A stretch of 56,476 nucleotides of DNA from a virus (lineage: Duplodnaviria > Caudoviricetes). Under the pieces are notes generated by a model. It was not told where the DNA came from. It saw nothing but the letters and a program-made list of their open reading frames with translations, and ran no database searches. The translations under genes and the position numbers were made by a program. Every line of letters starts with the position of its first letter. Position 1 is the stretch's first letter. Positions 27,526-46,895 of the stretch are shown in pieces. Location of the stretch: positions 1-56,476 of the IMG/VR virus record IMGVR_UViG_3300034096_000849; one strand, 5' to 3'.

Positions 27526-27944
27526 TCGACGCGGCCACCGGCGAGGCGATCGCGGCGGCTGCCGTGCGCCTTGTCGGCGCGCCGTTCCAGCATCAAGGCC
27601 GGGATCCGCAGTTTGGCCTCGATTGCGCGGGCGTGGTTATCGCCGCGCTGCAAGCTGTCGGCCTGACGATCAAGAACGAGGAAGCCTATCGCATGGACCC
27701 ATCTGCCTTCGTCTTGATGCGTAGCTTGCTCGCAACGTGCGTGCCGGTCGAATCGCCGCGCGCGGGCGACGTGCTTGCGCTGCGCACGAACGGCTCGGAG
27801 CCAAAGCACCTTGCCGTGGTGGTCGATCATTCGAGCATCGTCCACGTCTTCGGCCGATGCTCGCGTGTGCGGCTCGATTCGATTGCCACCTGGTGGCCCA
27901 ACGTTCATTCCATCTGGAGGCCCAAATGGCGTCCATCGCTCTAG
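27522..27944 (+). CDS. NlpC/P60 tail-associated peptidase
   Basis: PFQHQGR..GLDCAG, GDVL, HLAV, IVH; probable CTG start. Confidence 0.85.
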   Translation: MIDAATGEAIAAAAVRLVGAPFQHQGRDPQFGLDCAGVVIAALQAVGLTIKNEEAYRMDPSAFVLMRSLLATCVPVESPRAGDVLALRTNGSEPKHLAVVVDHSSIVHVFGRCSRVRLDSIATWWPNVHSIWRPKWRPSL

Positions 27945-29611
27945 TCGCTGCTCTCGGCACTTCGACCGCTGGCCTCACTGGCGGCGCGCTTACTGGCGCG
28001 ATTCTGACCAACCTTGGCCTGTCGGTCGCCGGCTCGATCCTTGACCAGACGGTCATCTTCCCCGCGCTGTTCCCGCGTGAAGCGCAGGACGGCCAGCGCG
28101 TGGACGATTGGCCGATTGGCCAGAGCTTCGAGGGCGCGCCGATGGGCTGGGTCGATGGCACGGCGCGGATCGAGGGCGTGCCGATTTACCTTGGCGAGCC
28201 GGTCGAGGAACAGGTGACGATCGGTGGCGGCAAGGCCGGCCCCGATTCGACGCAGTTCCGCTACAAGCGGGACGTGGTGGTGCTGTTCTCGAGCGACGTG
28301 CCGCCGCAGGGTGGGATCATCACGGATCTGTGGATCAACGGCGAGCGGGTGTTCCAGCTTTCGCCGGATATCAACCTCGCTTCAAACCAGATTAGCGCGA
28401 CCACCTCCGTTAACCCTGGGACGAACAACAGCAAACCGTACGCTTATCTGAGGGTGACTTCTCCGCCGTCTGGACCGAACCTTGCCTTGCTCCAGATCGG
28501 CTACCCTGTGACGGTTTCCGGATTCGCTCATCCTGGAAACAACTTCACTACTGGCACGGACCAGTTCGATGTCACGCTACAGCAAGTCTTCACCGACAAG
28601 CAGGGGAACCGTATCGCCGTATTCGCCAAGCAGCTATTTCTTGCCGGCAGCCCGAACCCCTTCGCCGCCGCCACCGCTGGCCCCACGATCACGATTTCGC
28701 AGGACTTGCCCCAACTCGTGCCCGATGTTGCCGAGTCGCTCGAACTCTACACCGGCGAGCAGCTCCAGGGCGCAGACCCGTACATCGAGGCCGCTGTTGG
28801 CAGCGGCAACGTGCCGAGCTACGAGGGCCTGGTGTGCATGCGCTTCGGCGGGCTAAACATGACCCGCTATGGCAACGGCGTTGCTCAGTATCAGGCCATC
28901 GTCCTGACGATCAGCCCGACGAATCTCGGCGAGCACATCGGCCGGGTGATGAAGCGGGCTGGCATCCAAGCGGGTCTATTCGACACGTTCGGCATGGCCG
29001 GCAATTTCATCGGCGCCGTGGCGCGTGGCCCGCAGGAGGCGAGCGCGCTTCTCGGCACTGCGCTCCAGGCGACCAACAACGTCGCTGCCGAGGTCGATGG
29101 CCGCCTCATCTTCAAGCGCCGGCCTGTGCTGGTGGATTACGAGCTGGCGGCTGACGAGCTGGGCGCTGTCGAGGTCGGCCAAGCGATCCCCGCTGCGCCT
29201 TTCCCGATCGACGATGCCGGCCCGCTTAGCCTGCCGCGCGCGGTCACGGTGCAGCACATGGACCCCAATCTTGAGTACCAGACCGGGGCACCGCGGCAGT
29301 TTTCGCCGCCTGGCAGCGAGGGCGAAGAGCTGAAGCTCAGCCTGCGCACCTGGGCCATGACACGGCAGGATGCGGCGAAAGCCGGTTGGAGCGCCGTGTG
29401 GAATGCGCAGAGCACGCGCCAGTCTGTGCGCTTTACGCTCCCGCCTTCGCGGCGAATGATTCGGCCTGGGCACCTGGTCTCGCTGCCTGTCGATGGCGGG
29501 GCGCCGCTCCGCGTGTTGATCCAAGAGCGCACGGCCGGGATCAACGGCATCCTCGAGTTCGTGGGCGTTGTCGAATCGCCCGAGGTCCACCTGTTCACCC
29601 CAGCCGCATGA
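27926..29611 (+). CDS. Tail tip / host-specificity protein, N-terminal part
   Basis: GT.RI.G, GGKAGP, LYTG...Q..DP.IEA..G..NVPSYEG, LPR.VTV...D...YQ. Confidence 0.8.
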   Translation: MASIALVAALGTSTAGLTGGALTGAILTNLGLSVAGSILDQTVIFPALFPREAQDGQRVDDWPIGQSFEGAPMGWVDGTARIEGVPIYLGEPVEEQVTIGGGKAGPDSTQFRYKRDVVVLFSSDVPPQGGIITDLWINGERVFQLSPDINLASNQISATTSVNPGTNNSKPYAYLRVTSPPSGPNLALLQIGYPVTVSGFAHPGNNFTTGTDQFDVTLQQVFTDKQGNRIAVFAKQLFLAGSPNPFAAATAGPTITISQDLPQLVPDVAESLELYTGEQLQGADPYIEAAVGSGNVPSYEGLVCMRFGGLNMTRYGNGVAQYQAIVLTISPTNLGEHIGRVMKRAGIQAGLFDTFGMAGNFIGAVARGPQEASALLGTALQATNNVAAEVDGRLIFKRRPVLVDYELAADELGAVEVGQAIPAAPFPIDDAGPLSLPRAVTVQHMDPNLEYQTGAPRQFSPPGSEGEELKLSLRTWAMTRQDAAKAGWSAVWNAQSTRQSVRFTLPPSRRMIRPGHLVSLPVDGGAPLRVLIQERTAGINGILEFVGVVESPEVHLFTPAA

Positions 29612-30474
29612 TCGCCACCTATCCGCAGACTCCGCACGTCGTGGTCTGCGATCTGCCCCACGGCCCCGAAATGTCGATGCGCATCGGGTGCGCGACGCCA
29701 AGGCATGCTCAGGCGCGCAAGCCGTCGGCCGTGTTCCTGCGCCGTGCAGATGGCGCGGGCTGGGAGCACGTCGAAACCACGTCGGGGCAGGCTGTCATCG
29801 GCGAGGTGGTGGACTTCGCGGACGTGTCGAAGCCGTACCAAGGCGAGTGCACAGTCGATTCGGCCTCGCGGCTTCGCGTGCGCCTGTTCGCAGGCCGGCT
29901 CTACTCGACCCCGATCGTGGACGCGGTTCTCGGCGCGTCGATGCTCATGGTCGGGTCTGAGCTGCTGGCGTTCACTAAGGCCGAGCAGATCGAGTCCTCC
30001 GAGTGGATGCTGTCCGGCATGGTGCGCGGCCTCAGGGACACCTCGACCTCTTGCGGCGGCCACATGCCGAGCGAGCCCGTGATGCTTATGTCCTCGGCAT
30101 CGGTGCGCATCCCCTATGACCCGAGTCAGGTGGGCCAGCGCTGGGCGATCAAGGCCGCGGCCGCCGGCCAGTCGCTCGCGGACGTGCCGATCGTTTGGGA
30201 GGGCGTCTTGTCCGGCGCCAGCGGGGTGCCGATGCGCCCGGCGATCATTGACGGCCGGCCCGTGGCGCGGTCTCGCTGGGTCGGTACCTGCTACGACGAT
30301 CGGACCGAGCTGCCTGCGTCGGAGATCGTGGAGCGTTGGGAGTGGTCGATCGCAGGCGGGCGGCCGATCGTGCGCCAGATCGGTGCGATGGGCGCGGGGC
30401 GCTGGACCGAGCGCGATGCGCCGTGGGTGTGTCTGCTGCCGCGCGAGCCGGCCCCGCTCAGCGCCCCGCGATGA
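29608..30474 (+). CDS. Tail tip protein, C-terminal part (GTA Rcc01698-like)
   Basis: VLGA...VGSELLAF..A......W.LSG..RGLRDT. Confidence 0.7.
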   Translation: MIATYPQTPHVVVCDLPHGPEMSMRIGCATPRHAQARKPSAVFLRRADGAGWEHVETTSGQAVIGEVVDFADVSKPYQGECTVDSASRLRVRLFAGRLYSTPIVDAVLGASMLMVGSELLAFTKAEQIESSEWMLSGMVRGLRDTSTSCGGHMPSEPVMLMSSASVRIPYDPSQVGQRWAIKAAAAGQSLADVPIVWEGVLSGASGVPMRPAIIDGRPVARSRWVGTCYDDRTELPASEIVERWEWSIAGGRPIVRQIGAMGAGRWTERDAPWVCLLPREPAPLSAPR

Positions 30475-30760
30475 ACCGGGGGACGCGGGTGGTGTACATG
30501 CCCCCGCATCGGTTGCACCCAACCCACAGCGGCGCCCAGGACTGGTCGGCCATCTCCAGGAGCTGAGCCTCCTGGCGCTCGTCCAGGCCGGGGTGCTTCT
30601 CCCGCAGCTCCTCGAGCAGCATGTCGGGCGGGAAGCGCTGCCCCGGGTGGATGCAGACCCCGCCGCACTGGGGGCACACCCAACGCCAGGCGACGCGCAG
30701 CTCTACCTCGCCGTGAGACGGCAGCGCCTCGAACTCGCGCCGCATCTTCTCAGGATCCAC
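30458..30760 (-). CDS. Small zinc-binding hypothetical protein
   Basis: CPQC and CNRC pairs. Confidence 0.6.
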   Translation of the reverse strand: MDPEKMRREFEALPSHGEVELRVAWRWVCPQCGGVCIHPGQRFPPDMLLEELREKHPGLDERQEAQLLEMADQSWAPLWVGCNRCGGMYTTRVPRFIAGR

Positions 30761-31154
30761 GCTGGCCCCCGCGCTTGCCCAGCCGGCGCAGTCTGTCCAT
30801 GACCTCCTGAGGCGGCCCGTAGCGCTCCAGGGTCCAGCCGAGAGCTGAGAGCCTGGAGATCGTGGCGCGGCTCACTCCGAGCGCGTCCGCGGCCTCCTGG
30901 TGGGTCGCACCGCCCTGGACCATCTCGCGGGCCCGCTCCACGGCCTCGCGGCTCATCCTGGACTGCTGCGGGTAGGCCGTGCCGTCGGCTGACCTCGAGG
31001 CCCGCGCGTAGTGGGTCGCGCACAGAGGGAGGTCGGTCCAGGCCCAGCCGGAGTCGGTCAGGAGCCTGACGTGGCGCCAGTGCTTGGCGGGCTGGCCGCA
31101 GGGCGGCGCGCCCGGGGTGTCGGTCCAGGCGCAGATGGAGGCGTCGCGGGGCAT
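30750..31154 (-). CDS. HTH DNA-binding protein with N-terminal Cys/His cluster
   Basis: THQEAADALGVSRATISR. Confidence 0.75.
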   Translation of the reverse strand: MPRDASICAWTDTPGAPPCGQPAKHWRHVRLLTDSGWAWTDLPLCATHYARASRSADGTAYPQQSRMSREAVERAREMVQGGATHQEAADALGVSRATISRLSALGWTLERYGPPQEVMDRLRRLGKRGGQRGS

Positions 31155-31246
31155 GCGGGCAGCCTCGCAGGGCTGCCGCGGGGCCGCAAGGGGTGGCCCG
31201 GGATTGGGAGCGCGGGGGCATTTTCCGGCGCCGGCGAAATGGCCGC

Positions 31247-31289
31247 AAAAGACCGAGGCCCTGGGTTCCGTTACGGATCCCAGGGCCTC
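31247..31289 (-). terminator. Intrinsic terminator of the ribozyme-containing operon
   Basis: Minus strand GAGGCCCTGGG-ATCCGTAACGGAA-CCCAGGGCCTC followed by GGTCTTTT. Confidence 0.7.
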
Positions 31290-31389
31290 TGTTGGATGCG
31301 GCCGGCCCCCCCTTTCTTGGCGGATCGCGGGGGCTCGGCGCGGGCGTCGTTCTGGGGACCAGTCTAGCTGGTGCCCCAGTGCCAAGACC

Positions 31390-31587
31390 CTACTCGCCAT
31401 GCCGGGCGGCAGTCAATAGCGCCGCCAGCACCTCTTCCCGGGACGCGGACTGGAGCCCCCGAGCCGAAGCCCAGGCCTCGATCTGGGCCGCCAGCCCGGC
31501 CGGCAGGCGGACCTCCCAGCGGACCTTGGGCGCGGGCGGCGGGTCCAGGCGCGGCCGGCCGGGGCGGCGCTTGGGGGGTGTGGTCAC
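31390..31587 (-). CDS. Small DNA-binding protein (AT-hook-like GRPR plus ribbon-helix-helix)
   Basis: KRRPGRPR...VRWEVRLPAGLAAQIEAWA...SREEVL; GTGA coupling. Confidence 0.7.
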   Translation of the reverse strand: MTTPPKRRPGRPRLDPPPAPKVRWEVRLPAGLAAQIEAWASARGLQSASREEVLAALLTAARHGE

Positions 31588-31841
31588 TGAGACACCCCCA
31601 GATCGTCTGCGCAGACGGCAGCCCATTCGGCGGGGGGCACGCTGGACATCGGCGCGGTCAGCTCCCGGTCGCAGACGTGGAGCAGCCACCGGTCAGAGAG
31701 CTGCTCCGCATAGCCGTAGCAGCCCTCGGCAAGCTCCACGCGCCAGAGCTGGACGCACTCGGGCGAGGGGGTGTAGCCAGGCTGGTCAGCGCCGCAGGGC
31801 CCCCAGGCGGAGGGCAGGTCGGTCGTGGCTTGGGTGGTCAT
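31584..31841 (-). CDS. Hypothetical protein (cassette 3, downstream of ribozyme copy 2)
   Basis: ATG immediately after the repeated leader; MTTQATTDLPSAW. Confidence 0.75.
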   Translation of the reverse strand: MTTQATTDLPSAWGPCGADQPGYTPSPECVQLWRVELAEGCYGYAEQLSDRWLLHVCDRELTAPMSSVPPAEWAAVCADDLGVSQ

Positions 31842-31929
31842 GGCTTGGTGGGGTCTGTGGTGGTCTTGGCTTGCCTCATCAGTGCGCCGGGGGCCACCCG
31901 AGCGCAGACCGGCCGGGGCCGGTTTCGGC
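31838..31929. repeat. 92-bp direct repeat (copy 2), one mismatch vs 32307-32398
   Basis: Direct alignment; offset 469 bp; mismatch 31892 G vs 32361 A. Confidence 0.95.
31867..31929 (-). ncRNA. Type II hammerhead ribozyme, copy 2
   Basis: GCC-GAA-ACCGGC(CCCG)GCCGGU-C^UGCGC-U-CGGG(UGGCC)CCCG-GCGCA-CUGAUGA-GGC-AAGCCA; full core, three stems, loop I/3' tail pseudoknot; cleavage 31907/31906. Confidence 0.92.
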
Positions 31930-31935
31930 GGGGGT

Positions 31936-32310
31936 TTAGGCCCCCAGGAGTTGGGTCGGGTGCGGCTGGAACCCTTGCGCCTCATATTCGGCGGCGCGGG
32001 CTGCGATCAGGCTTCGAGCAAAGTGCGCAGCCTGGTCGGCACTCGCGCACTTGAAAAGAACCCGGCCGGACTTCTGCCCAACCAGCCAGCCGCGCACCGA
32101 GTAACCCTCGCCAAGCGGCTCGACCTGGAGGCGCTGGAGGTTGGGGCTGCCCTCCCAGCGCCAGGCCTTAGCGGCTTGCACTTTGCCGGCCCAGCCGCGA
32201 GGCATAGCAAGGTCGGATGGCATGAATTGTCCGCCCTCATAAAACAGCTTGTTGACCTCGGAGAAGGCGCCGCCGATAGGGGCTTGCTCGGGAAGGGCTT
32301 GGGCGTTCAT
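31936..32310 (-). CDS. Hypothetical protein (cassette 2, flanked by both ribozymes)
   Basis: 124 aa, MNAQALPEQAPIGGAFSEVNKLFYEGGQFMP. Confidence 0.75.
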   Translation of the reverse strand: MNAQALPEQAPIGGAFSEVNKLFYEGGQFMPSDLAMPRGWAGKVQAAKAWRWEGSPNLQRLQVEPLGEGYSVRGWLVGQKSGRVLFKCASADQAAHFARSLIAARAAEYEAQGFQPHPTQLLGA

Positions 32311-32398
32311 GGCTTGGTGGGGTCTGTGGTGGTCTTGGCTTGCCTCATCAGTGCGCCGGGAGCCACCCGAGCGCAGACCGGCCGGGGCCGGTTTCGGC
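32307..32398. repeat. 92-bp direct repeat (copy 1)
   Basis: Direct alignment with 31838-31929. Confidence 0.95.
32336..32398 (-). ncRNA. Type II hammerhead ribozyme, copy 1
   Basis: Same fold; loop UGGCU pairs with downstream AGCCA; begins immediately after the upstream TGA; cleavage 32376/32375. Confidence 0.92.
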
Positions 32399-32668
32399 TC
32401 AGTCGGTGCGCCGCACGTACCGGCCCTCGGAATCCACGTCGAGGGTGGCCACCAGGAACTGATAGGGGATGTAGTCGCGCTCCCGTTCGCCAGGCAGCAG
32501 GGATGCCATGAGGCGAAAGTTGTCCCGGGCAGCAACCCCACCTTCGACCAGCGTGCCCACCAGGACGCCCACAGCTTTGTGGTGCAGGCTGCCCTCAATG
32601 CGGGCCAACTGGACAGCTTGGGCGAGGGTTTGCTGGGGCAGGCAGGTGGCTTGGGCGCTGGCGTTCAT
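32399..32668 (-). CDS. Hypothetical protein (cassette 1)
   Basis: MNASAQATCLPQQ after a related AAGCC-ATG leader. Confidence 0.7.
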   Translation of the reverse strand: MNASAQATCLPQQTLAQAVQLARIEGSLHHKAVGVLVGTLVEGGVAARDNFRLMASLLPGERERDYIPYQFLVATLDVDSEGRYVRRTD

Positions 32669-32725
32669 GGCTTTGGGCTTGCTGGGGTCAGGTGGTCTGT
32701 CAGGCCGCGGCGTCAACCGCGATGG

Positions 32726-32758
32726 GAGTACCTTCGCACGGCCGCGCCGGCCAGTCAA
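32726..32758 (-). promoter_or_regulatory. Putative early promoter TTGACT-N16-CGAAGGTACTC
   Basis: Same motif at 45161-45194; upstream of the inverted operon. Confidence 0.65.
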
Positions 32759-32965
32759 TACAAAACCGGCCGGAAAATATCTGGCAGCCGCAAACGTGGG
32801 CCAGAACGTCACTTAGGGCCTTCCCAGCCGCCCCGCCTAGCCCCCGGAGTGTAAGGGATGCGCAAAAACAGGGCTCCTAGGGGGCTCCGGTGGCCGTCTC
32901 GGAATCAGAATTGGGCAGTCCGCACCCTCATATCTGCCCCTGTCATGGTCTCAACCTCTGCCCAC

Positions 32966-33686: not shown

Positions 33687-34043
33687 ATGCCCAAGGTCTC
33701 GAACCTGCCCGAGTCGCTCGAGCTTCAAGCGCTGCTCGGTGCCACGTTGACGTTCGCGGTCGCGCCGAAGAACAGCGACGGGTCCGCGATCGACATGACC
33801 GGCCAGACGCTCACGCTGACCGTTCGCCGGCAGGGCCAAACCGCGGCGCTGCTCACGCTGACCTCGCCTAGCGGCGGCATCTCGGCGCCTGGCACGTCGG
33901 CCACCGTCACGCTGACCCCAGCCAACACCGCGACGCTAGGCGCCGGCGAGTTCGTGTACACGCTGAACCGCGCATCGGGTGGCGTTGTCCTCCCCCTGCT
34001 GTCCGGTCCGCTCTCGGTGCGCGCCGAGTCGATCTACCCGTGA
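33687..34043 (+). CDS. Beta-rich virion structural protein (fibre adaptor-like)
   Basis: GAT.TF...DG..IDMTG.T...VR...TLT...T.TL...VY.L pattern; precedes the collagen gene. Confidence 0.6.
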
Positions 34044-35527
34044 CGGTCCAGGTCATCGCATCGCCGGTCCTGGTCGAGGTCACGGGGCTGCCCGTGGGCC
34101 CGGTTACGGTCGAGACCGCGGGCCCGGTGTCGGTCGAGGTCACAGGCGGCGGCAGCGGGGGCGCTGTCGGCCCGCAGGGCCCGCCTGGCCCCGAGGGGCC
34201 TGCTGGCCCTCAAGGCCCTGCCGGGCCTGCCGGAGCGACCGGCGCCCAGGGCCCGCAAGGCGTCGCTGGACCCGCCGGCGCAACCGGACCGCAAGGTTCC
34301 GTCGGAGCCACGGGCGCGACCGGGCCCGCTGGCCCGAAGGGAGACACGGGAGACACGGGCCCCCAGGGTCCGCAGGGCACCCAAGGACTCCAGGGGATCC
34401 AGGGCCCGGCCGGCCCTGCCGGCGCAACCGGGGCGACCGGCCCGGCCGGCCCCGAGGGTCCCCAGGGTCCGCAAGGGCCCGCGGGCGCAGCAGGCGCGAC
34501 GGGCGCCACTGGCCCCCAGGGCCCGGCCGGCCCGCAAGGTGACCCCGGCCCGACTGGTCCTCAGGGCCCGGCCGGTGCAAATGGTGCCACGGGAGCCCAG
34601 GGCATCCAGGGGCCAGCCGGACCCACTGGCCCGACGGGCGCCACAGGTCCAGCCGGACCCGAAGGCCCGCAAGGTCCAGCAGGCCCGACGGGTCCGACTG
34701 GAGCGGCCGGCGCCACGGGCCCGGCGGGAGCAACTGGGGCCACCGGCCCCGCAGGACCCGGCTTGCCCGTCGGCGGCATCGCCGGCCAACTGCCGGTCAA
34801 GTTGAGCTCCACCGACTACGCGACGGCCTGGCGCTTCCTGACGCACCTGCCGAGGCTGCAACTCGGCTACTGGCCGACTGCCAGCGGCGCGGGCACCGGC
34901 ATCGGCACCGCCTGGACCAACGCAGGCTCAGCCAGCACTCCGGCGCTCGGCTCGGGATCGGTCTGGGACAGCACGGCAAGGAATCGACTTTCCACCACCG
35001 CGGCCACAGGCCAAAACGCGTCCACTCGCAGCTCGCTCAAGGTCATCCCCGGCAGTTTCGACGCGCTTCCCGGCTTCCGCTTGCGCGCCCTGTTCGGCTT
35101 CAACTCCATGATTGCGGGCCATCGCTGCTTCGTCGGCCTGCAAGGGTCCGCCACTGCCATCGGCAACGTAGAGCCTCAGACGATCGCAAGCTCAATCGCG
35201 TTCATTTCAAGATCGACAGACACTCAATACCAGCTAATGTCGCGGCGCGCCGGCAGCACCGACTTTGTGCCGCTTGGCGCCGACTTTGAAGTTGGCTCGC
35301 TGACGAATGTGCCTCTCGATCTGCTCATCGCGCATGCCCCGAACAGCGCAACCTACGAATGGCGCGTGACCAGGCTAGACACGGGCGCGACGCAAAGCGG
35401 CACCGTGACCAGCGAGAACAGCCCAGGGGTTAACACGCAGCTTGCGTTCCACGCTTGGGTGAACACCGCAAGCTCTTCGACCGCAGCCGTCATTGAGCTT
35501 GCGTCGGTGCTGGCGTACGACTACTAA
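34040..35527 (+). CDS. Collagen-like fibre protein
   Basis: About 200 aa of Gly-X-Y repeats followed by a globular beta-rich domain. Confidence 0.9.
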
Positions 35528-36276
35528 CCTCCGTGCCGCGAGTGGTCGCCATCGCTCCACTCGTACTTTTCGGGGCCTGTCTGGATGATCTTCTCGACCT
35601 GGATCCGAACCAGCTTGATGCAGGTCTCAAAAATCGTCTTGTCTTTTTTCGTCTCGATCGCGTCGCGGCGCCGTTGCAGCTCGAGAATCTGAGCATCGAG
35701 CCGCGCCAGCTCGTCTAGCCAGGGCTGGATATCGCGCTTGGCCGTGGCGATCAGCGCCTCGGCGTCCTCCATGCTGTGCGGCTGTGCGCAGCCGTCGCCT
35801 GTCACTAGGTGGCGGCCTAGGTCCTCCGGCATCCACGACTTGCCGCAGACTGGGCAAACGAGCCGGTAGCGACGCGGGGCCCCCGGCGCAAGGGGCGGGC
35901 GCAGCGGGTAGGGGGGCGGCACGTCCGGCGGGGGTTCCGGGTAGCGGACGGCTTGATCCGACACCCGGGAGGCGATCGGCTCGGGCAGGGCCGCTGGCGC
36001 GCTGCCGGGGCCGGGGCCTTCGCCGGTCTGGAGCCATTGGACGGACACGCCGTAGAGCCTGGACAGCACCCGCAGCGCGTAGGGCGTGGGGTGGTTGTCG
36101 GCCCGCTCGTAAGCCCAGATCGTGGCGGAGCTTCGGGCCAACTCTCTGCCGGCCTGGGCTGCGCCAATTCCTGCCGCCTCCCTGGCCTCACGAAGGCGCC
36201 TGCCCAGCTCCTGGGAGTGCTCCGTCTTCTGCTGGTCCTGGGGAGCCGACACGGGGTCGGCGATGCTAGGCGGCAT
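35524..36276 (-). CDS. XRE-family HTH repressor with C-terminal zinc-finger/coiled coil
   Basis: [10 protein letters not shown]...YER....P...[14 protein letters not shown]; divergent from xis/int. Confidence 0.85.
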
Positions 36277-36339: not shown

Positions 36340-36384
36340 TCTGAGGCTTGCTGAGTTCAGTCAGTTCAGGAAAGCTGAGCCTCC
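36340..36384. promoter_or_regulatory. Putative immunity operator/promoter region
   Basis: CTGAG x3, AGTTCAG x2, GAGGCT...AGCCTC inverted repeat; TTGCTG-N17-AAAGCT. Confidence 0.45.
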
Positions 36385-36594
36385 ATGAAGCCCTCGCCCG
36401 CCGACCTGCCGCCCATGCACACGCCCCGGAGCGCCGCCGAGGCCCTCGGGGTGAGCGTGAGCTGCATTCACAAGTGGATCACCTCTGGAGCCCTGCCCGC
36501 CGTCCGCGTGGGCAGCCGCTATCGCATCCCCGAGTCCAGCCTGGCCGCCGTCGTGAGCCAGGTCCCCGCCCCCGCCGGCCAGCCCGGCAACTGA
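36385..36594 (+). CDS. xis: Excisionase / Cro-like HTH protein
   Basis: TPRSAAEALGVS..CIHKWI.SGALPAVRVGSRYRIPESSL. Confidence 0.85.
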   Translation: MKPSPADLPPMHTPRSAAEALGVSVSCIHKWITSGALPAVRVGSRYRIPESSLAAVVSQVPAPAGQPGN

Positions 36595-36614
36595 CCCCGA
36601 GACCCCATCCCGCC

Positions 36615-37994
36615 ATGCAAGCAACCATCGAGACCACCCGCCTGGCCGAGGCGATCGCCGCCCTCGTCCAGGCCCCGGCCAGGCCCAGCGCCCGGCTGGA
36701 ATCCGTCGTCCAGGCCTACCTGGAGGCCCAGGCGCCCCACGTGGGGGCCGAGCATCACCGATTCACCCAGCGCAAGATCCGCGACCTCCTGGGAGCGCTC
36801 CAGGCCACGGCGCGAGCCGCCGGCCGCCGGCTGGAGCTCGTCGCCGACCTCGAGGCCGGCCAGGTCTCGGCCTGGATGCGGGCCCGCCTGGACCAGGGCA
36901 TGGCCAGCGCGACCGTCCGGGGCCACGTGGCGGCGCTCAAGACCGCGCTGGCCTGGGCAGTCGAGCAGGAGATCATCGAGCGCAGCCCCCTGGGCAAACT
37001 GCGCCTGCCGGCCATCGGGCGGGCGCGCCAGACTCGGCCCCGGGGCCGCCCGGACTCCGAGCAGATCGCCGCGCTGATCGGGGCCGCCAGCGCCCAGGAC
37101 CATGCAGCCGCCGACGGCATCCCCCAGCTCCCGCTGCTGTGGACGATGATCCGGACCGGCATCCGCCGGGGCGAGGCCATCGCCGCGCGCCGTGGCGATT
37201 ACGACCGCCGCGCCAGGGTGCTCCGAATCCGCGCGGAGAGCGCCAAGACCAAGCGCGGCCGGGTGCTGCCGCTGGAGGACGAGGACTGCGCCGCCATCGA
37301 TGGGGCGATTGCCGCGACGGATCGCCTCCTGGGCCGCCAGCTCGACACCGCGCCGCTATTCCGCTCGCGCCGCGGGGCGAAGCTCCAGCCGCGCAACGTC
37401 TCACGCTGGATGGACCAGCTCTTGCGCGCCGCCGGCGTCCCCAAGCGCAACGCCGCGGGCGAGGCCATCTGCCTGCACTCGCTGCGCCACGCCGCGGCCG
37501 ACAGCCTCGCGGCCACCAACCTGCGCGCCGCCCAGCTCCTGCTCGGGCACACGACCAGCCGCACGACCGAGGGCTACCTGCACTCGACCGATGCTGACTA
37601 TCTGCGCGCCGCGATCCAGGGCCTGCCGCGGCCCGATGTGCAGAACCTGCTCACAACTGGTGTCCCAGGACTCGCAGTCGAGGCTCAGGTGTCCACCGGA
37701 GGAGGCGGCAAAAAACCGCCCCGCAGGGCCACTGGAATGGGTGAGCGAGGGGACTCGAACCCCCGACCCCGAGAACCACAATCTGGGGACGGTTTTCCGG
37801 CATCTTCCAGACAAACCGCCCAGACGAAACCCGAACAGCTGGCCGTCGAAATCCAGGTCCAGTGGCTCCGGGAAGGCCAGGAGATCCTGCTCCCGACTGT
37901 CGAGGCGCTCCGCGCGCTCCTGCTCGCCCAGGAGCCGCTCGCCACGCTTCTTCGCCGCGGCGCCGTGCGCATCAAGGGGGTGGCCCGTGGCTGA
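36615..37994 (+). CDS. int: Tyrosine integrase
   Basis: TGIRRGE (R), KTKR (K), HSLRH, LLGH, TEGY (Y). Confidence 0.95.
   Translation: MQATIETTRLAEAIAALVQAPARPSARLESVVQAYLEAQAPHVGAEHHRFTQRKIRDLLGALQATARAAGRRLELVADLEAGQVSAWMRARLDQGMASATVRGHVAALKTALAWAVEQEIIERSPLGKLRLPAIGRARQTRPRGRPDSEQIAALIGAASAQDHAAADGIPQLPLLWTMIRTGIRRGEAIAARRGDYDRRARVLRIRAESAKTKRGRVLPLEDEDCAAIDGAIAATDRLLGRQLDTAPLFRSRRGAKLQPRNVSRWMDQLLRAAGVPKRNAAGEAICLHSLRHAAADSLAATNLRAAQLLLGHTTSRTTEGYLHSTDADYLRAAIQGLPRPDVQNLLTTGVPGLAVEAQVSTGGGGKKPPRRATGMGERGDSNPRPREPQSGDGFPASSRQTAQTKPEQLAVEIQVQWLREGQEILLPTVEALRALLLAQEPLATLLRRGAVRIKGVARG
37738..37784 (-). other. attP core: 3' half of tRNA-His(GTG), inside the integrase ORF
   Basis: AGA-TTGTGGT-TCTCG-GGGTC-GGGGG-TTCGAGT-CCCCT-CGCTCAC-C-CA: GTG anticodon loop, T-arm, acceptor strand, C73; no D-arm. 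Confidence 0.85.
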
Positions 37995-45446: not shown

Positions 45447-46895
45447 ATGCAAACCACCGAGACCGCTCCCGAGATCCGCATCGTCAACGTCGGCCCGATC
45501 CAGCGCCTGGAGATCCCGATCCCCCGAGATGGGGGAGTCGTGGTCCTCCGCGGCCACAACGGCGCGGGCAAGTCCACGGCCCTGGCCGCCGTGTCGGCCC
45601 TGGGCGGCACCGCGAGCGCCAAGGACTCGCTGACCGCTCGCTACGGCGCCAAGGAGGGCACGATCGAGGCCCCCGGCATCCGCATGCGCATCGGCCAGCG
45701 GACGACCGCCCAGGGCGACCTGGCAGTCCAACAGATCGAGGCCAGCGCCCCGGCGCGCCTGGTCGATCCCGCCATCAAGGACCCCGAGCGGGCCGATGCA
45801 GCTCGCGCCCGCGCCCTGTGCCAGATCCTCGGGATCGAGCCGCCTGTTGTGGCCTGGGGCCGCCTGCTAGCCGATCCGACCCGCATCGATGATGCGTTGG
45901 CCGGCGCCGACCGCGGCGACGCCACCGAGTGCGCCGCGCAGGTCAAGCGCTACCTGGAGTCTCAGGCCCGCACCGAGGAGACGCTGGCCGAGCGCGACAA
46001 GACCCGCGCGGAGGCTGCCCGCCTCGCAGCGAAGGACTCGATGGCTGGAGTCACGCCGTACAGCGGCGACCCGACTGCGGACGCCGTGGACGCCGCGGGC
46101 AAGCTCCGCGACCTCGAATCCCGCGTCAAGGCCGCGACCGATGCGGCGACCCAGCTCCCGGCTCTGCGCGCCCGCGTCGAGGCCATGCCTGGCCTGTCGA
46201 TCGAGGCTGCGACCGCCGCCGCAAGACATGCCGCAGTGGCCGTGGTCCTGGCCGAGGACGCTCTCCGCGAGGCGCAGCGGGTGATGGCCGAGCGCAAGAG
46301 CGCCGCGAAGGCCGCCGCCGATGCGCTGTCCCTGGCGCAGGCCCGCCACGCAATGGTCCCGCAGCTCGCGGCGCTCGAATCGGCCAGCGCGGCCATGCCG
46401 AGCCTGGACGAGCTGCAAGCGCAGCGGGCACGACTTGCCGCCGCGAAGGAGGCGATGGCCCAGCAGGCGCGGCTCGCCGATGCCGAGCGCCGCAACTCCG
46501 AGGCTGGCGAGCTGTCGGCGAGCGCCGAGAAGCACGCGCAGTCCGCCAAGGTCTACCGCGACTCGGCTGCTCAAGTCGAGCCGATGCTGTTTTCTGGCCT
46601 TCGCTCGGGCCTGGTCGAGATCCGCGATGGCCTGCTGTACGGCCGGCATCACACGCTCGGCATGGTCCGATTCGGCTCGCTGTCGCACGGCGAGCGCTGG
46701 CGCTTGGCGCTCGAACTGGTGCTCGCCCATCAGCAGCCTGGCACTGAGACGCCGATCCTCGCCGTCGCTCAAGAGGCCTGGGAAGGCCTCGATCCGAAGA
46801 ACCGCGAGGAGCTGGTCGATATCGCGCGCCGCTACCGCGTGGCGATCCTGACGGCCGAGGCTGCAACCGGCGAGCTGGCTGTTTCCCAGGCCTGA
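45447..46895 (+). CDS. Rad50/SbcC-like ABC/AAA ATPase with coiled coil
   Basis: NVGPI, GHNGAGKST, long coiled coil, LSHGE, QEAWEGLD. Confidence 0.85.
   Translation: MQTTETAPEIRIVNVGPIQRLEIPIPRDGGVVVLRGHNGAGKSTALAAVSALGGTASAKDSLTARYGAKEGTIEAPGIRMRIGQRTTAQGDLAVQQIEASAPARLVDPAIKDPERADAARARALCQILGIEPPVVAWGRLLADPTRIDDALAGADRGDATECAAQVKRYLESQARTEETLAERDKTRAEAARLAAKDSMAGVTPYSGDPTADAVDAAGKLRDLESRVKAATDAATQLPALRARVEAMPGLSIEAATAAARHAAVAVVLAEDALREAQRVMAERKSAAKAAADALSLAQARHAMVPQLAALESASAAMPSLDELQAQRARLAAAKEAMAQQARLADAERRNSEAGELSASAEKHAQSAKVYRDSAAQVEPMLFSGLRSGLVEIRDGLLYGRHHTLGMVRFGSLSHGERWRLALELVLAHQQPGTETPILAVAQEAWEGLDPKNREELVDIARRYRVAILTAEAATGELAVSQA

Follow-up and report, generated by a model that had tools for sequence, protein, structure and literature searches.

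The 56,476-bp stretch of DNA analysed here, referred to below as the window, is the entire IMG/VR virus record IMGVR_UViG_3300034096_000849 (completeness rating 100%). On its minus strand it carries a small operon in which two near-identical copies of a predicted self-cleaving RNA, the type II hammerhead ribozyme, stand between short genes. By every sequence-level criterion the two elements, HH1 (32333..32399) and HH2 (31864..31930), are members of the type II hammerhead family. With a probability that we put at about 0.65, they are active ribozymes that cut the transcript of this moron-like operon into single-gene messages. This reading builds on family membership in both sequence and structure, on covariation of the stems among relatives, on a stop-ribozyme-leader-start grammar, and on coding potential on the strand that carries the ribozymes.

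The two hammerhead elements and the operon around them

The elements lie in a direct repeat of 92 bp (31838-31929 and 32307-32398), the copies of which are 469 bp apart and differ by one mismatch (31892 versus 32361). At lower identity the repeat grows to 103 nt (31827-31929 and 32296-32398; 97%, three mismatches) and then includes the leader as well as the first codons of the next open reading frame (ORF). A third copy, consisting of the leader and first codons only and 72% identical, is found before ORF A, the first gene of the operon, at 32653-32688. We compared the whole window, on both strands, with 4227 Rfam families using cmscan. Exactly two matches reached the gathering level, both of them to RF02276 (Hammerhead_II, clan CL00010; gathering score 37), both on the minus strand, and both full length (model positions 1-66 of 66) and untruncated. 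HH1 scored 44.4 bits (E 7e-6) and HH2 44.1 bits (E 8.5e-6), and a covariance model built here (R1) gave 76.4 and 74.3 bits, respectively. With the RF02276 model, E-values of 1.7e-9 and 2.0e-9 were obtained for this genome and no match for 14 control genomes.

Read from 5' to 3', both copies have stem II GCC/GGC followed by GAA (G12A13A14), stem III ACCGGC-CCCG-GCCGGU followed by the GUC triplet (C17), and stem I UGCGC(U)CGGG-loop-CCCGGCGCA followed by CUGAUGA, the stem II partner, an A and the AGCCA tail. Loop I reads UGGCU in HH1 and UGGCC in HH2, its last base being the sole difference between the 92-bp copies, and it is complementary to the 3' tail, forming a pseudoknot of UGGCU/AGCCA in HH1 and UGGC/GCCA in HH2. 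The catalytic core is intact in both copies (CUGAUGA, GAA, the A...U that closes stem III, GUC and the G-C at the base of stem II). Perreault et al. (2011; PMC3088659) list the core positions as C3 U4 G5 A6 N7 G8 A9, G12 A13 A14, A15.1-U16.1, H17 and G10.1-C11.1. Stems I and III are closed by loops and stem II is open, in the cmscan structure line as well as in the folds, which is the type II topology. When the 65-nt elements are folded in isolation, both the minimum-free-energy and the centroid structure are the three-way junction, for HH1 and for HH2. Counted on the sequence, the predicted cleavage sites are C32376|U32375 in HH1 and C31907|U31906 in HH2.

The two ribozymes start 0 and 6 nt after a stop codon and are then followed by the same leader of ~23 nt and an ATG. 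A preliminary description of the locus, made from the letters of the DNA, had claimed these repeats, complete minus-strand hammerheads, their cleavage coordinates and this spacing. The repeats were confirmed base for base, the coordinates came out the same on recounting, the stop codons, leader and ATG are where it had put them, and the Infernal scores above, together with the core and pseudoknot, bear out the hammerheads.

The operon consists, in order, of a promoter-like site, ORF A, HH1, ORF B, HH2, ORF C/D and a terminator-like hairpin. ORF A (89 aa; 32399..32668) is the first gene, and its TGA stop codon abuts HH1. ORF B (124 aa; 31936..32310) lies between the two ribozymes, and ORF C (85 aa; 31584..31841) ends in a stop codon that overlaps the GTG start of ORF D (65 aa; 31390..31587) as GTGA. 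All four genes are on the minus strand. The G+C content of the three codon positions is 0.74/0.44/0.81 in ORF A, 0.72/0.50/0.76 in ORF B and 0.69/0.56/0.87 in ORF C, and ORFs A-D all have the order GC1 > GC2 < GC3 found in the confirmed genes of the phage, a pattern that overlapping plus-strand ORFs do not have. The ribozymes are therefore on the coding strand.

Relatives, covariation and the placement of the ribozyme

Relatives were sought with a degenerate pattern based on the ribozyme's 3' half, which yielded 30 IMG/VR loci and two genome contigs; a stricter pattern yielded one metagenome contig (L038). The Rfam model places 24 above-threshold hammerheads in these loci; model R1 gives 47 strong matches (E <= 2.4e-7) in the window and the 30 loci, plus two weak rows. 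Two or three ribozymes are present in 13 of the 31 sources, forming nine distinct arrangements with spacings of 400-1135 nt.

Covariation was assessed in an alignment (A1) of 27 distinct sequences, in which one partly misaligned row (L031b) was kept. Standard pairs fill 96.3% of the pair cells, compared with 33-39% when the partners are slid by 1-3 columns (n=27), the 3' strand of stem II, the core and the tail being partly fixed by the search pattern. Double-sided changes occur at 11 of 20 pairs, and the observed covariation score was not attained in any of 500 column shuffles. In stem I, seven of nine pairs covary. Stem II occurs as G-U-C/G-A-C and as G-C-C/G-G-C, with one U-G intermediate. 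The homologues thus conserve both the core and the pairing of the stems, features whose loss the preliminary description had named in advance as a refutation.

Eight further ribozymes, found by the models only, keep the core, two of them (L003c and L018b) with C at the variable position 7. The pseudoknot covaries in relatives found by the covariance model alone, the variants being UGGUU/AACCA (L026, L019 and L030), GGUU/AACC (L010) and UCGCC/GGCGA (L018), which are few independent variants. The two hammerheads of L018 (3556-3622 and 4617-4680, plus strand) also depart from the family in another respect: GAAUC...GAC places a U15.1-A16.1 pair where A15.1-U16.1 is normally invariant. The second of them has the wholly different yet complementary pseudoknot UCGCC/GGCGA. 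L018 is on the same contig as L034, which is labelled as part of a Sterolibacterium genome bin.

The placement of the ribozyme follows a strict rule. In 47 of 47 cases the ribozyme comes after an ORF in the same orientation, 40 aa or longer, whose end lies -2 to +10 nt from the first base of stem II; in 45 of 47 an ATG or GTG that opens an ORF follows 0-48 nt past the tail, start codons having been chosen by script and possibly being off by several codons. The exceptions to the downstream start are L009, where none was found, and L021, which has a doubtful GTG at 70 nt. Among the genes after the ribozyme are many orphans; others encode an ArdC-type anti-restriction protein, a clamp-loader-like AAA protein and, in many loci, a MoxR-like AAA_5 ATPase. 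The ribozyme, with or without the leader, recurs in this way beside unrelated genes in other phages, and the idea of a portable module put forward in the preliminary description holds to that extent.

Two of these neighbours deserve a separate record. The conserved MoxR-like ATPase (~330 aa; for example L007 12443-13432, minus strand) directly follows a type II hammerhead in ~20 loci (L005, L006, L007, L008, L011-L017, L019, L020, L023, L025, L029, L030 and L032), and the combination of ATPase and ribozyme is preceded by at least four different upstream genes. In L026 (167-1015, minus strand) the ribozyme precedes the gene for the ArdC-type anti-restriction protein or metallopeptidase. We found no literature linking a self-cleaving hammerhead, phage and anti-defense.

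Proposed processing of the operon transcript and competing explanations

In the mechanism that we favour, a minus-strand transcript of ~1.5 kb would carry both ribozymes. Folding would be co-transcriptional, with stems III and I forming as local hairpins, the 3-bp stem II closing and loop I pairing with the 3' tail, and each element would be cut after its GUC. Three messages would result, namely ORF A, ORF B and the translationally coupled ORF C+D. The upstream pieces would end in the stem III hairpin plus one base bearing a 2',3'-cyclic phosphate, and the downstream pieces would open at the foot of stem I with a 5'-OH and continue into an unstructured, C/A-rich leader that leads to the AUG. 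Such ends are expected to be poor substrates for 5'-monophosphate-dependent entry of RNase E or J and for 3' exonucleases. The cistrons would in this way be uncoupled from each other's upstream context, with regard to both stability and the accessibility of the start site, and no host RNase would be needed.

In the early polycistron of phage T7, RNase III cuts structured intercistronic sites and leaves single-gene mRNAs with terminal hairpins; T7 relies on a host enzyme for this, whereas in the present operon the cutting activity would be built into the RNA. The insulator RiboJ is engineered, derived from a satellite-RNA hammerhead and placed after a promoter, in contrast to the present elements, which are natural, of type II and intercistronic. 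In E. coli, RiboJ raises the downstream transcript ~2-fold and protein 2-10-fold (PMC6206723). Like RiboJ, a self-cleaving ribozyme just upstream of a translation start would strip away the upstream RNA context and alter the levels of downstream transcript and protein.

By its layout, the locus is to be classed with the clustered prophage hammerheads of Perreault et al. (2011). These authors described co-oriented prophage hammerheads, including type II elements with a pseudoknot, that flank individual genes or short runs of genes, of variable identity, near integrases, and proposed that they process long phage transcripts into single-gene mRNAs (PMC3088659). Clustered prophage hammerheads cut ~2-kb polycistronic RNAs in vitro, and a triple arrangement from A. 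tumefaciens was cleaved in vivo after cloning and transcription (PMC3088659). HH1 and HH2 resemble these clusters in being co-oriented, 469 nt apart and placed on either side of a single gene, ORF B, in a phage with a tyrosine integrase nearby. They differ from those clusters in that the copies are near-identical, with a repeat that takes in the leader and the first codons, that the genes are orphans and that the operon is antisense within a tail module. The hammerhead alignments in the supplements of Perreault et al. may already contain the present subfamily. In D. vulgaris, three type II hammerheads near phage-like or hypothetical genes self-cleave in cells, as detected by cyPhyRNA-seq, which captured products with 2',3'-cyclic phosphate and 5'-OH ends from total RNA (PMC8782182). 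Those hammerheads occupy three separate genomic places, whereas the present pair stands in tandem in one operon.

The layout and the suggested function have thus been in print since 2011, and the finding on its own changes no concept, while the purpose of bacterial and phage hammerheads was still described as needing defining work in a 2019 review (PMC6765202). What is specific to this locus is the near-identity of the copies into coding sequence, the antisense moron-like position, the leaders without a Shine-Dalgarno sequence, and the existence elsewhere of a 99%-identical block of ORF A and ribozyme. With two near-identical consensus ribozymes, three orphan genes and, plausibly, a promoter and a terminator, it is a clean and compact example of the arrangement and a possible test construct.

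Several observations weigh against the processing of the transcript by active ribozymes. The z-scores of the element folds are -0.9 and -0.5, which for a G+C-rich composition is not significant, and the hammerhead is not the minimum-free-energy fold when the elements are placed in a 141-nt context. When the predicted cleavage products are folded, their ends do not retain the hairpins of stems I and III, and the z-scores are again non-significant. Protection of the ends by hairpins, which the preliminary description had asserted and which the type II topology makes plausible, is therefore a step that we infer. CUGAUGAG, the tail and part of loop I were set by the search pattern that yielded the relatives, and for that reason these columns carry no independent weight. 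The leaders lack a Shine-Dalgarno sequence, a feature that we rate as neutral and that most genes of the phage share, and a consensus promoter scan called no site in the window or in the related phage L004. Transcription and cleavage, along with any effect on stability or translation, are likewise what we infer.

Part of the stretch is also present in RNA libraries. Seven RNA runs from freshwater metatranscriptomes (two studies), available as contigs, were considered, of which five contain part of it; runs X1-X4 were examined. Six contigs of 167-296 nt, at a depth of 2-4, cover parts of ORF A (three runs), ORF B (one) and ORF C (two). None of the six bridges a ribozyme core or two genes, and 31200-31641 and 32685-32900 are uncovered. 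The contigs are uninformative on RNA ends, DNA may be present in the libraries, and the 103-nt repeat would break assemblies, so we do not read the gaps in cover as evidence on transcription or cleavage. A polycistron fits the shared orientation of the genes, the gaps of 0-23 nt, the promoter-like site and the terminator-like hairpin, with the negative promoter scan and the lack of a bridging contig on the other side.

The promoter-like site is a TTGACT -35 hexamer (32753..32758, minus strand) preceded by a T-rich stretch, with a weak -10 candidate, GAAGGT, at 32735-32730, 17 nt downstream. TTGACT and the nearby CGAA..CCCATCG are conserved at the equivalent place in L004 (alignment A2). The terminator-like element is a G+C-rich hairpin after ORF D (31241..31303, minus strand; inverted repeat I1) with a core at 31289-31255, followed by GGUCUUUUG. 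The 111-nt fold, with UCUUUU following, has -60.4 kcal/mol and a z-score of -3.72, and none of 200 shuffles was as stable; a terminator scan of the window did not include the hairpin at 31303-31241 in its list. Of the promoter-to-terminator layout given in the preliminary description, the order of ORFs and ribozymes stands, while the promoter and terminator are at the level of consensus and neither was called by the scans.

The alternative that we take most seriously, as possible rather than probable, is that ribozyme and leader matter chiefly as DNA, forming a conserved intergenic patch through which single-gene cassettes are exchanged or duplicated by homologous recombination. It draws on the way in which high-identity similarity between contexts stops at the ribozyme edges. 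Window positions 32694 to 32335, comprising a 26-nt leader, ORF A and HH1, match L004 at 99.2% identity over 360 nt. The identity ends 1 nt before the 3' end of the ribozyme, after which L004 continues with another leader and the gene for an orphan protein of 190 aa. The only other similarity between the two phages is one 70%-identical stretch at 38.8-41.1 kb of the window, and in L004 ORF A and the ribozyme are on the strand opposite this block, ~4 kb away. The surroundings thus differ, and the module occupies different genomic neighbourhoods in the two phages. Between the second ribozyme of L011 and that of L007, an identity of 98.1% begins 1 nt ahead of the ribozyme and reaches into the ATPase gene, the upstream genes being unrelated; the first ribozyme of L011 has only the ribozyme and 16-19 nt of leader in common with L007 (96.5%). 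In L038, the ribozyme of the window (95.8%) follows another small ORF and is succeeded by a similar leader and an "MTSQA" start. In RNA-library contigs from two runs, X1 and X2, ORF C with its leader is joined to other sequence at 31861, a point 3 nt beyond HH2, and this implies a variant phage with a different neighbour upstream of ORF C. The foreign part of these two contigs is ~76-98 nt long and unlike the window. Copies within a genome can also be near-identical (97% in the window, 100% in L011).

These breaks are no proof of a recombination substrate, since mosaic joints in phages fall at gene boundaries regardless and the ribozyme fills the intergenic space. In addition, sharp edges in low-identity pairs reflect nothing beyond conservation of the ribozyme, the copies are divergent in seven of the nine distinct multi-ribozyme arrangements, and the element has no linked recombinase. 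A role as DNA is compatible with RNA cleavage, and both may coexist. We know of no literature on phage mosaic joints at ribozymes, in a search that covered sources other than subscription journals and supplements, and the homology breaks at the ribozyme edges are an addition beyond Perreault et al. (2011). A still more doubtful extension is that hammerhead and C/A-rich leader form a portable joint with two purposes, giving insulation at the RNA level and, at the DNA level, shared homology with which unrelated phages would swap, duplicate or delete cassettes of single orphan genes. If true, this would amount to an integron-like cassette economy without a dedicated integrase, and would explain why ribozymes cluster in accessory regions with ever-changing genes.

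The leader itself appears to be of an ordinary kind. The one after HH1 (32311..32332, minus strand) is C/A-rich, lacks a Shine-Dalgarno sequence and ends in AAGCC before the ATG, and the one after HH2 is identical. In relatives of lower G+C content the leader contains GGAG; in the window, L004 and L038 it is C/A-rich and ends in AAGCC-AUG. Leaders of the AGCC-AUG type also precede genes that have no ribozyme, at 45447 and 48441 (plus strand), ORF A and three ORFs of L038. The "fixed leader" is therefore best described as the ordinary start context of this phage group, duplicated together with the ribozyme, and not as a special device for reinitiation. G-poor, C/A-rich leaders of this kind suggest initiation in the host that is independent of a Shine-Dalgarno sequence. 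In L038 (ORF positions 52, 367, 666 and 1014, plus strand), two small ORFs share an identical 35-nt leader of the (A/C)AGCC-AUG type with no ribozyme.

Cleavage might also be conditional or slow, the elements then acting as a switch, for instance between lysogeny and lytic growth, that sets the ratio of ORF A to ORF B to ORF C/D. Regulated cleavage has been suggested for some phage hammerheads (PMC3088659), long-range pairings outcompete the hammerhead fold in the 141-nt models, and an alternative pairing is conceivable in that the AGCCA motif of the tail recurs at each start codon as AGCC-AUG. That motif, however, is equally present at the ribozyme-free genes just mentioned, and the alternative folds have low ensemble frequencies and non-significant z-scores. 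The core, moreover, is fully consensus, which in tested cases is associated with fast cleavage (PMC3088659), and we consider a switch unlikely.

We give even less credence to a fate in which the 469-nt ORF B piece, once excised, re-forms one hammerhead from its ends and is closed into a circle by ligation, or else spliced out. The near-identity of HH1 and HH2 would let the 5' and 3' ends of the piece rebuild stem II and the core, and Perreault et al. raised the possibility for clustered prophage hammerheads, but reported that spliced or circular products went undetected (PMC3088659). Translation of a circle would bring no gain, given that 469 is not divisible by 3 and that ORF B contains a stop codon. 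The copies are divergent in most multi-ribozyme relatives, and no such joint occurs in the RNA contigs, whose cover is too thin to count. Finally, that the repeats are inactive relics or mere duplicated DNA with an incidental hammerhead match, to which the weak z-scores of the elements would lend themselves, is very improbable in view of two full-length above-threshold matches with every core base intact, compensatory changes that keep the structure across 27 relatives, and strict placement in 47 of 47 cases.

The operon in the phage genome and the nature of its genes

The phage is a complete, temperate siphovirus of ~56 kb, uncultured, from freshwater and of high G+C content (65-73%). A genome contig (L033) that lies within a metagenome-assembled genome labelled Acetobacteraceae is 100% identical to the window across 8 kb, and the host is probably an Acetobacteraceae bacterium. 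On the plus strand are the genes for the large terminase (4558), the portal (5910), the tape measure (20270), a tail assembly protein (26665), a J-like tail protein (27737-30471), a phrog_1084 protein (33687) and a collagen-like tail fibre (34040-35527); these are followed by the repressor (35524-36276, minus strand) and the tyrosine integrase (36348-37994).

The ribozyme operon is antisense to the tail genes and lies between the gene for the J-like tail protein on one side and the phrog_1084 and tail-fibre genes on the other; the repressor and integrase are ~3-4 kb away. It looks like a small, self-contained antisense accessory unit inside the tail module, that is, moron-like. The preliminary description had called it an early polycistron, a designation that is not supported in this genome, the antisense position inside the tail module being typical of a moron. 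On the 3' side of the terminator-like hairpin, genes for a protein with a C-terminal helix-turn-helix domain and for a 100-aa zinc-ribbon-like protein (30458..31154, minus strand; G+C content at third codon positions 0.93 and 0.92) close the antisense block within the tail module. When the C-terminal part of the tail protein was used to seek related loci, no relative of the phage was found at this position, and a blastn search with the operon found no match among 50,697 GenBank phage records.

The products of ORFs A, B and C are orphans, and neither Pfam nor PHROGs has a family for any of ORFs A-D. In a word-indexed search of 5.8 billion proteins, ORFs A and B each retrieved their own cluster and one relative (two clusters), and ORF D a single 98%-identical cluster. 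An exhaustive HMMER search of 1.84 billion representatives with ORF C returned the protein itself, one 90-aa protein (E 2.6e-4) and a short repeat match. Atlas look-alikes of ORFs A and B scored at most 0.83, which is the level of chance.

In the ORF D product, a basic N-terminal tail precedes an extended segment and two helices. The protein's single-sequence AlphaFold2 model (predicted local distance difference test score, pLDDT, 78.7) places the helices at 30-42 and 50-63 in addition to the extended segment. The top Foldseek rows are CopG, NikR, MazE and Arc, with E-values of 0.7-9 and none at or below 0.001 (best 0.72, TM by target 0.60); there was no Pfam hit at E <= 0.1 and no PDB sequence hit at E <= 10. 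On the strength of this model ORF D may encode a ribbon-helix-helix DNA-binding protein. The assignment had already been made in the preliminary description, and of it there remains the resemblance of the best folds, CopG, NikR and Arc, at E-values that support it weakly. A toxin-antitoxin reading of the coupled ORF C/D pair was considered and left as unsupported.

ORF B has a 34%-identical relative in L035, at a locus free of hammerheads. Its N-terminal motif, G..FYEGGQFMP, also starts otherwise different phage proteins (L036 4001-4084 and L037 4001-4093) and is found inside a 531-aa ORF in L035 (4001-4339); L035, L036 and L037 all lack a hammerhead. The J-like protein (phrog_4271), in turn, is split between two overlapping plus-strand ORFs in different frames, 27737-29608 and 29386-30471, which match consecutive parts (748-956 and 983-1259) of a profile of 1309 positions. 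The split may reflect a frameshift, whether real, programmed or an assembly error, within roughly 29386-29611.

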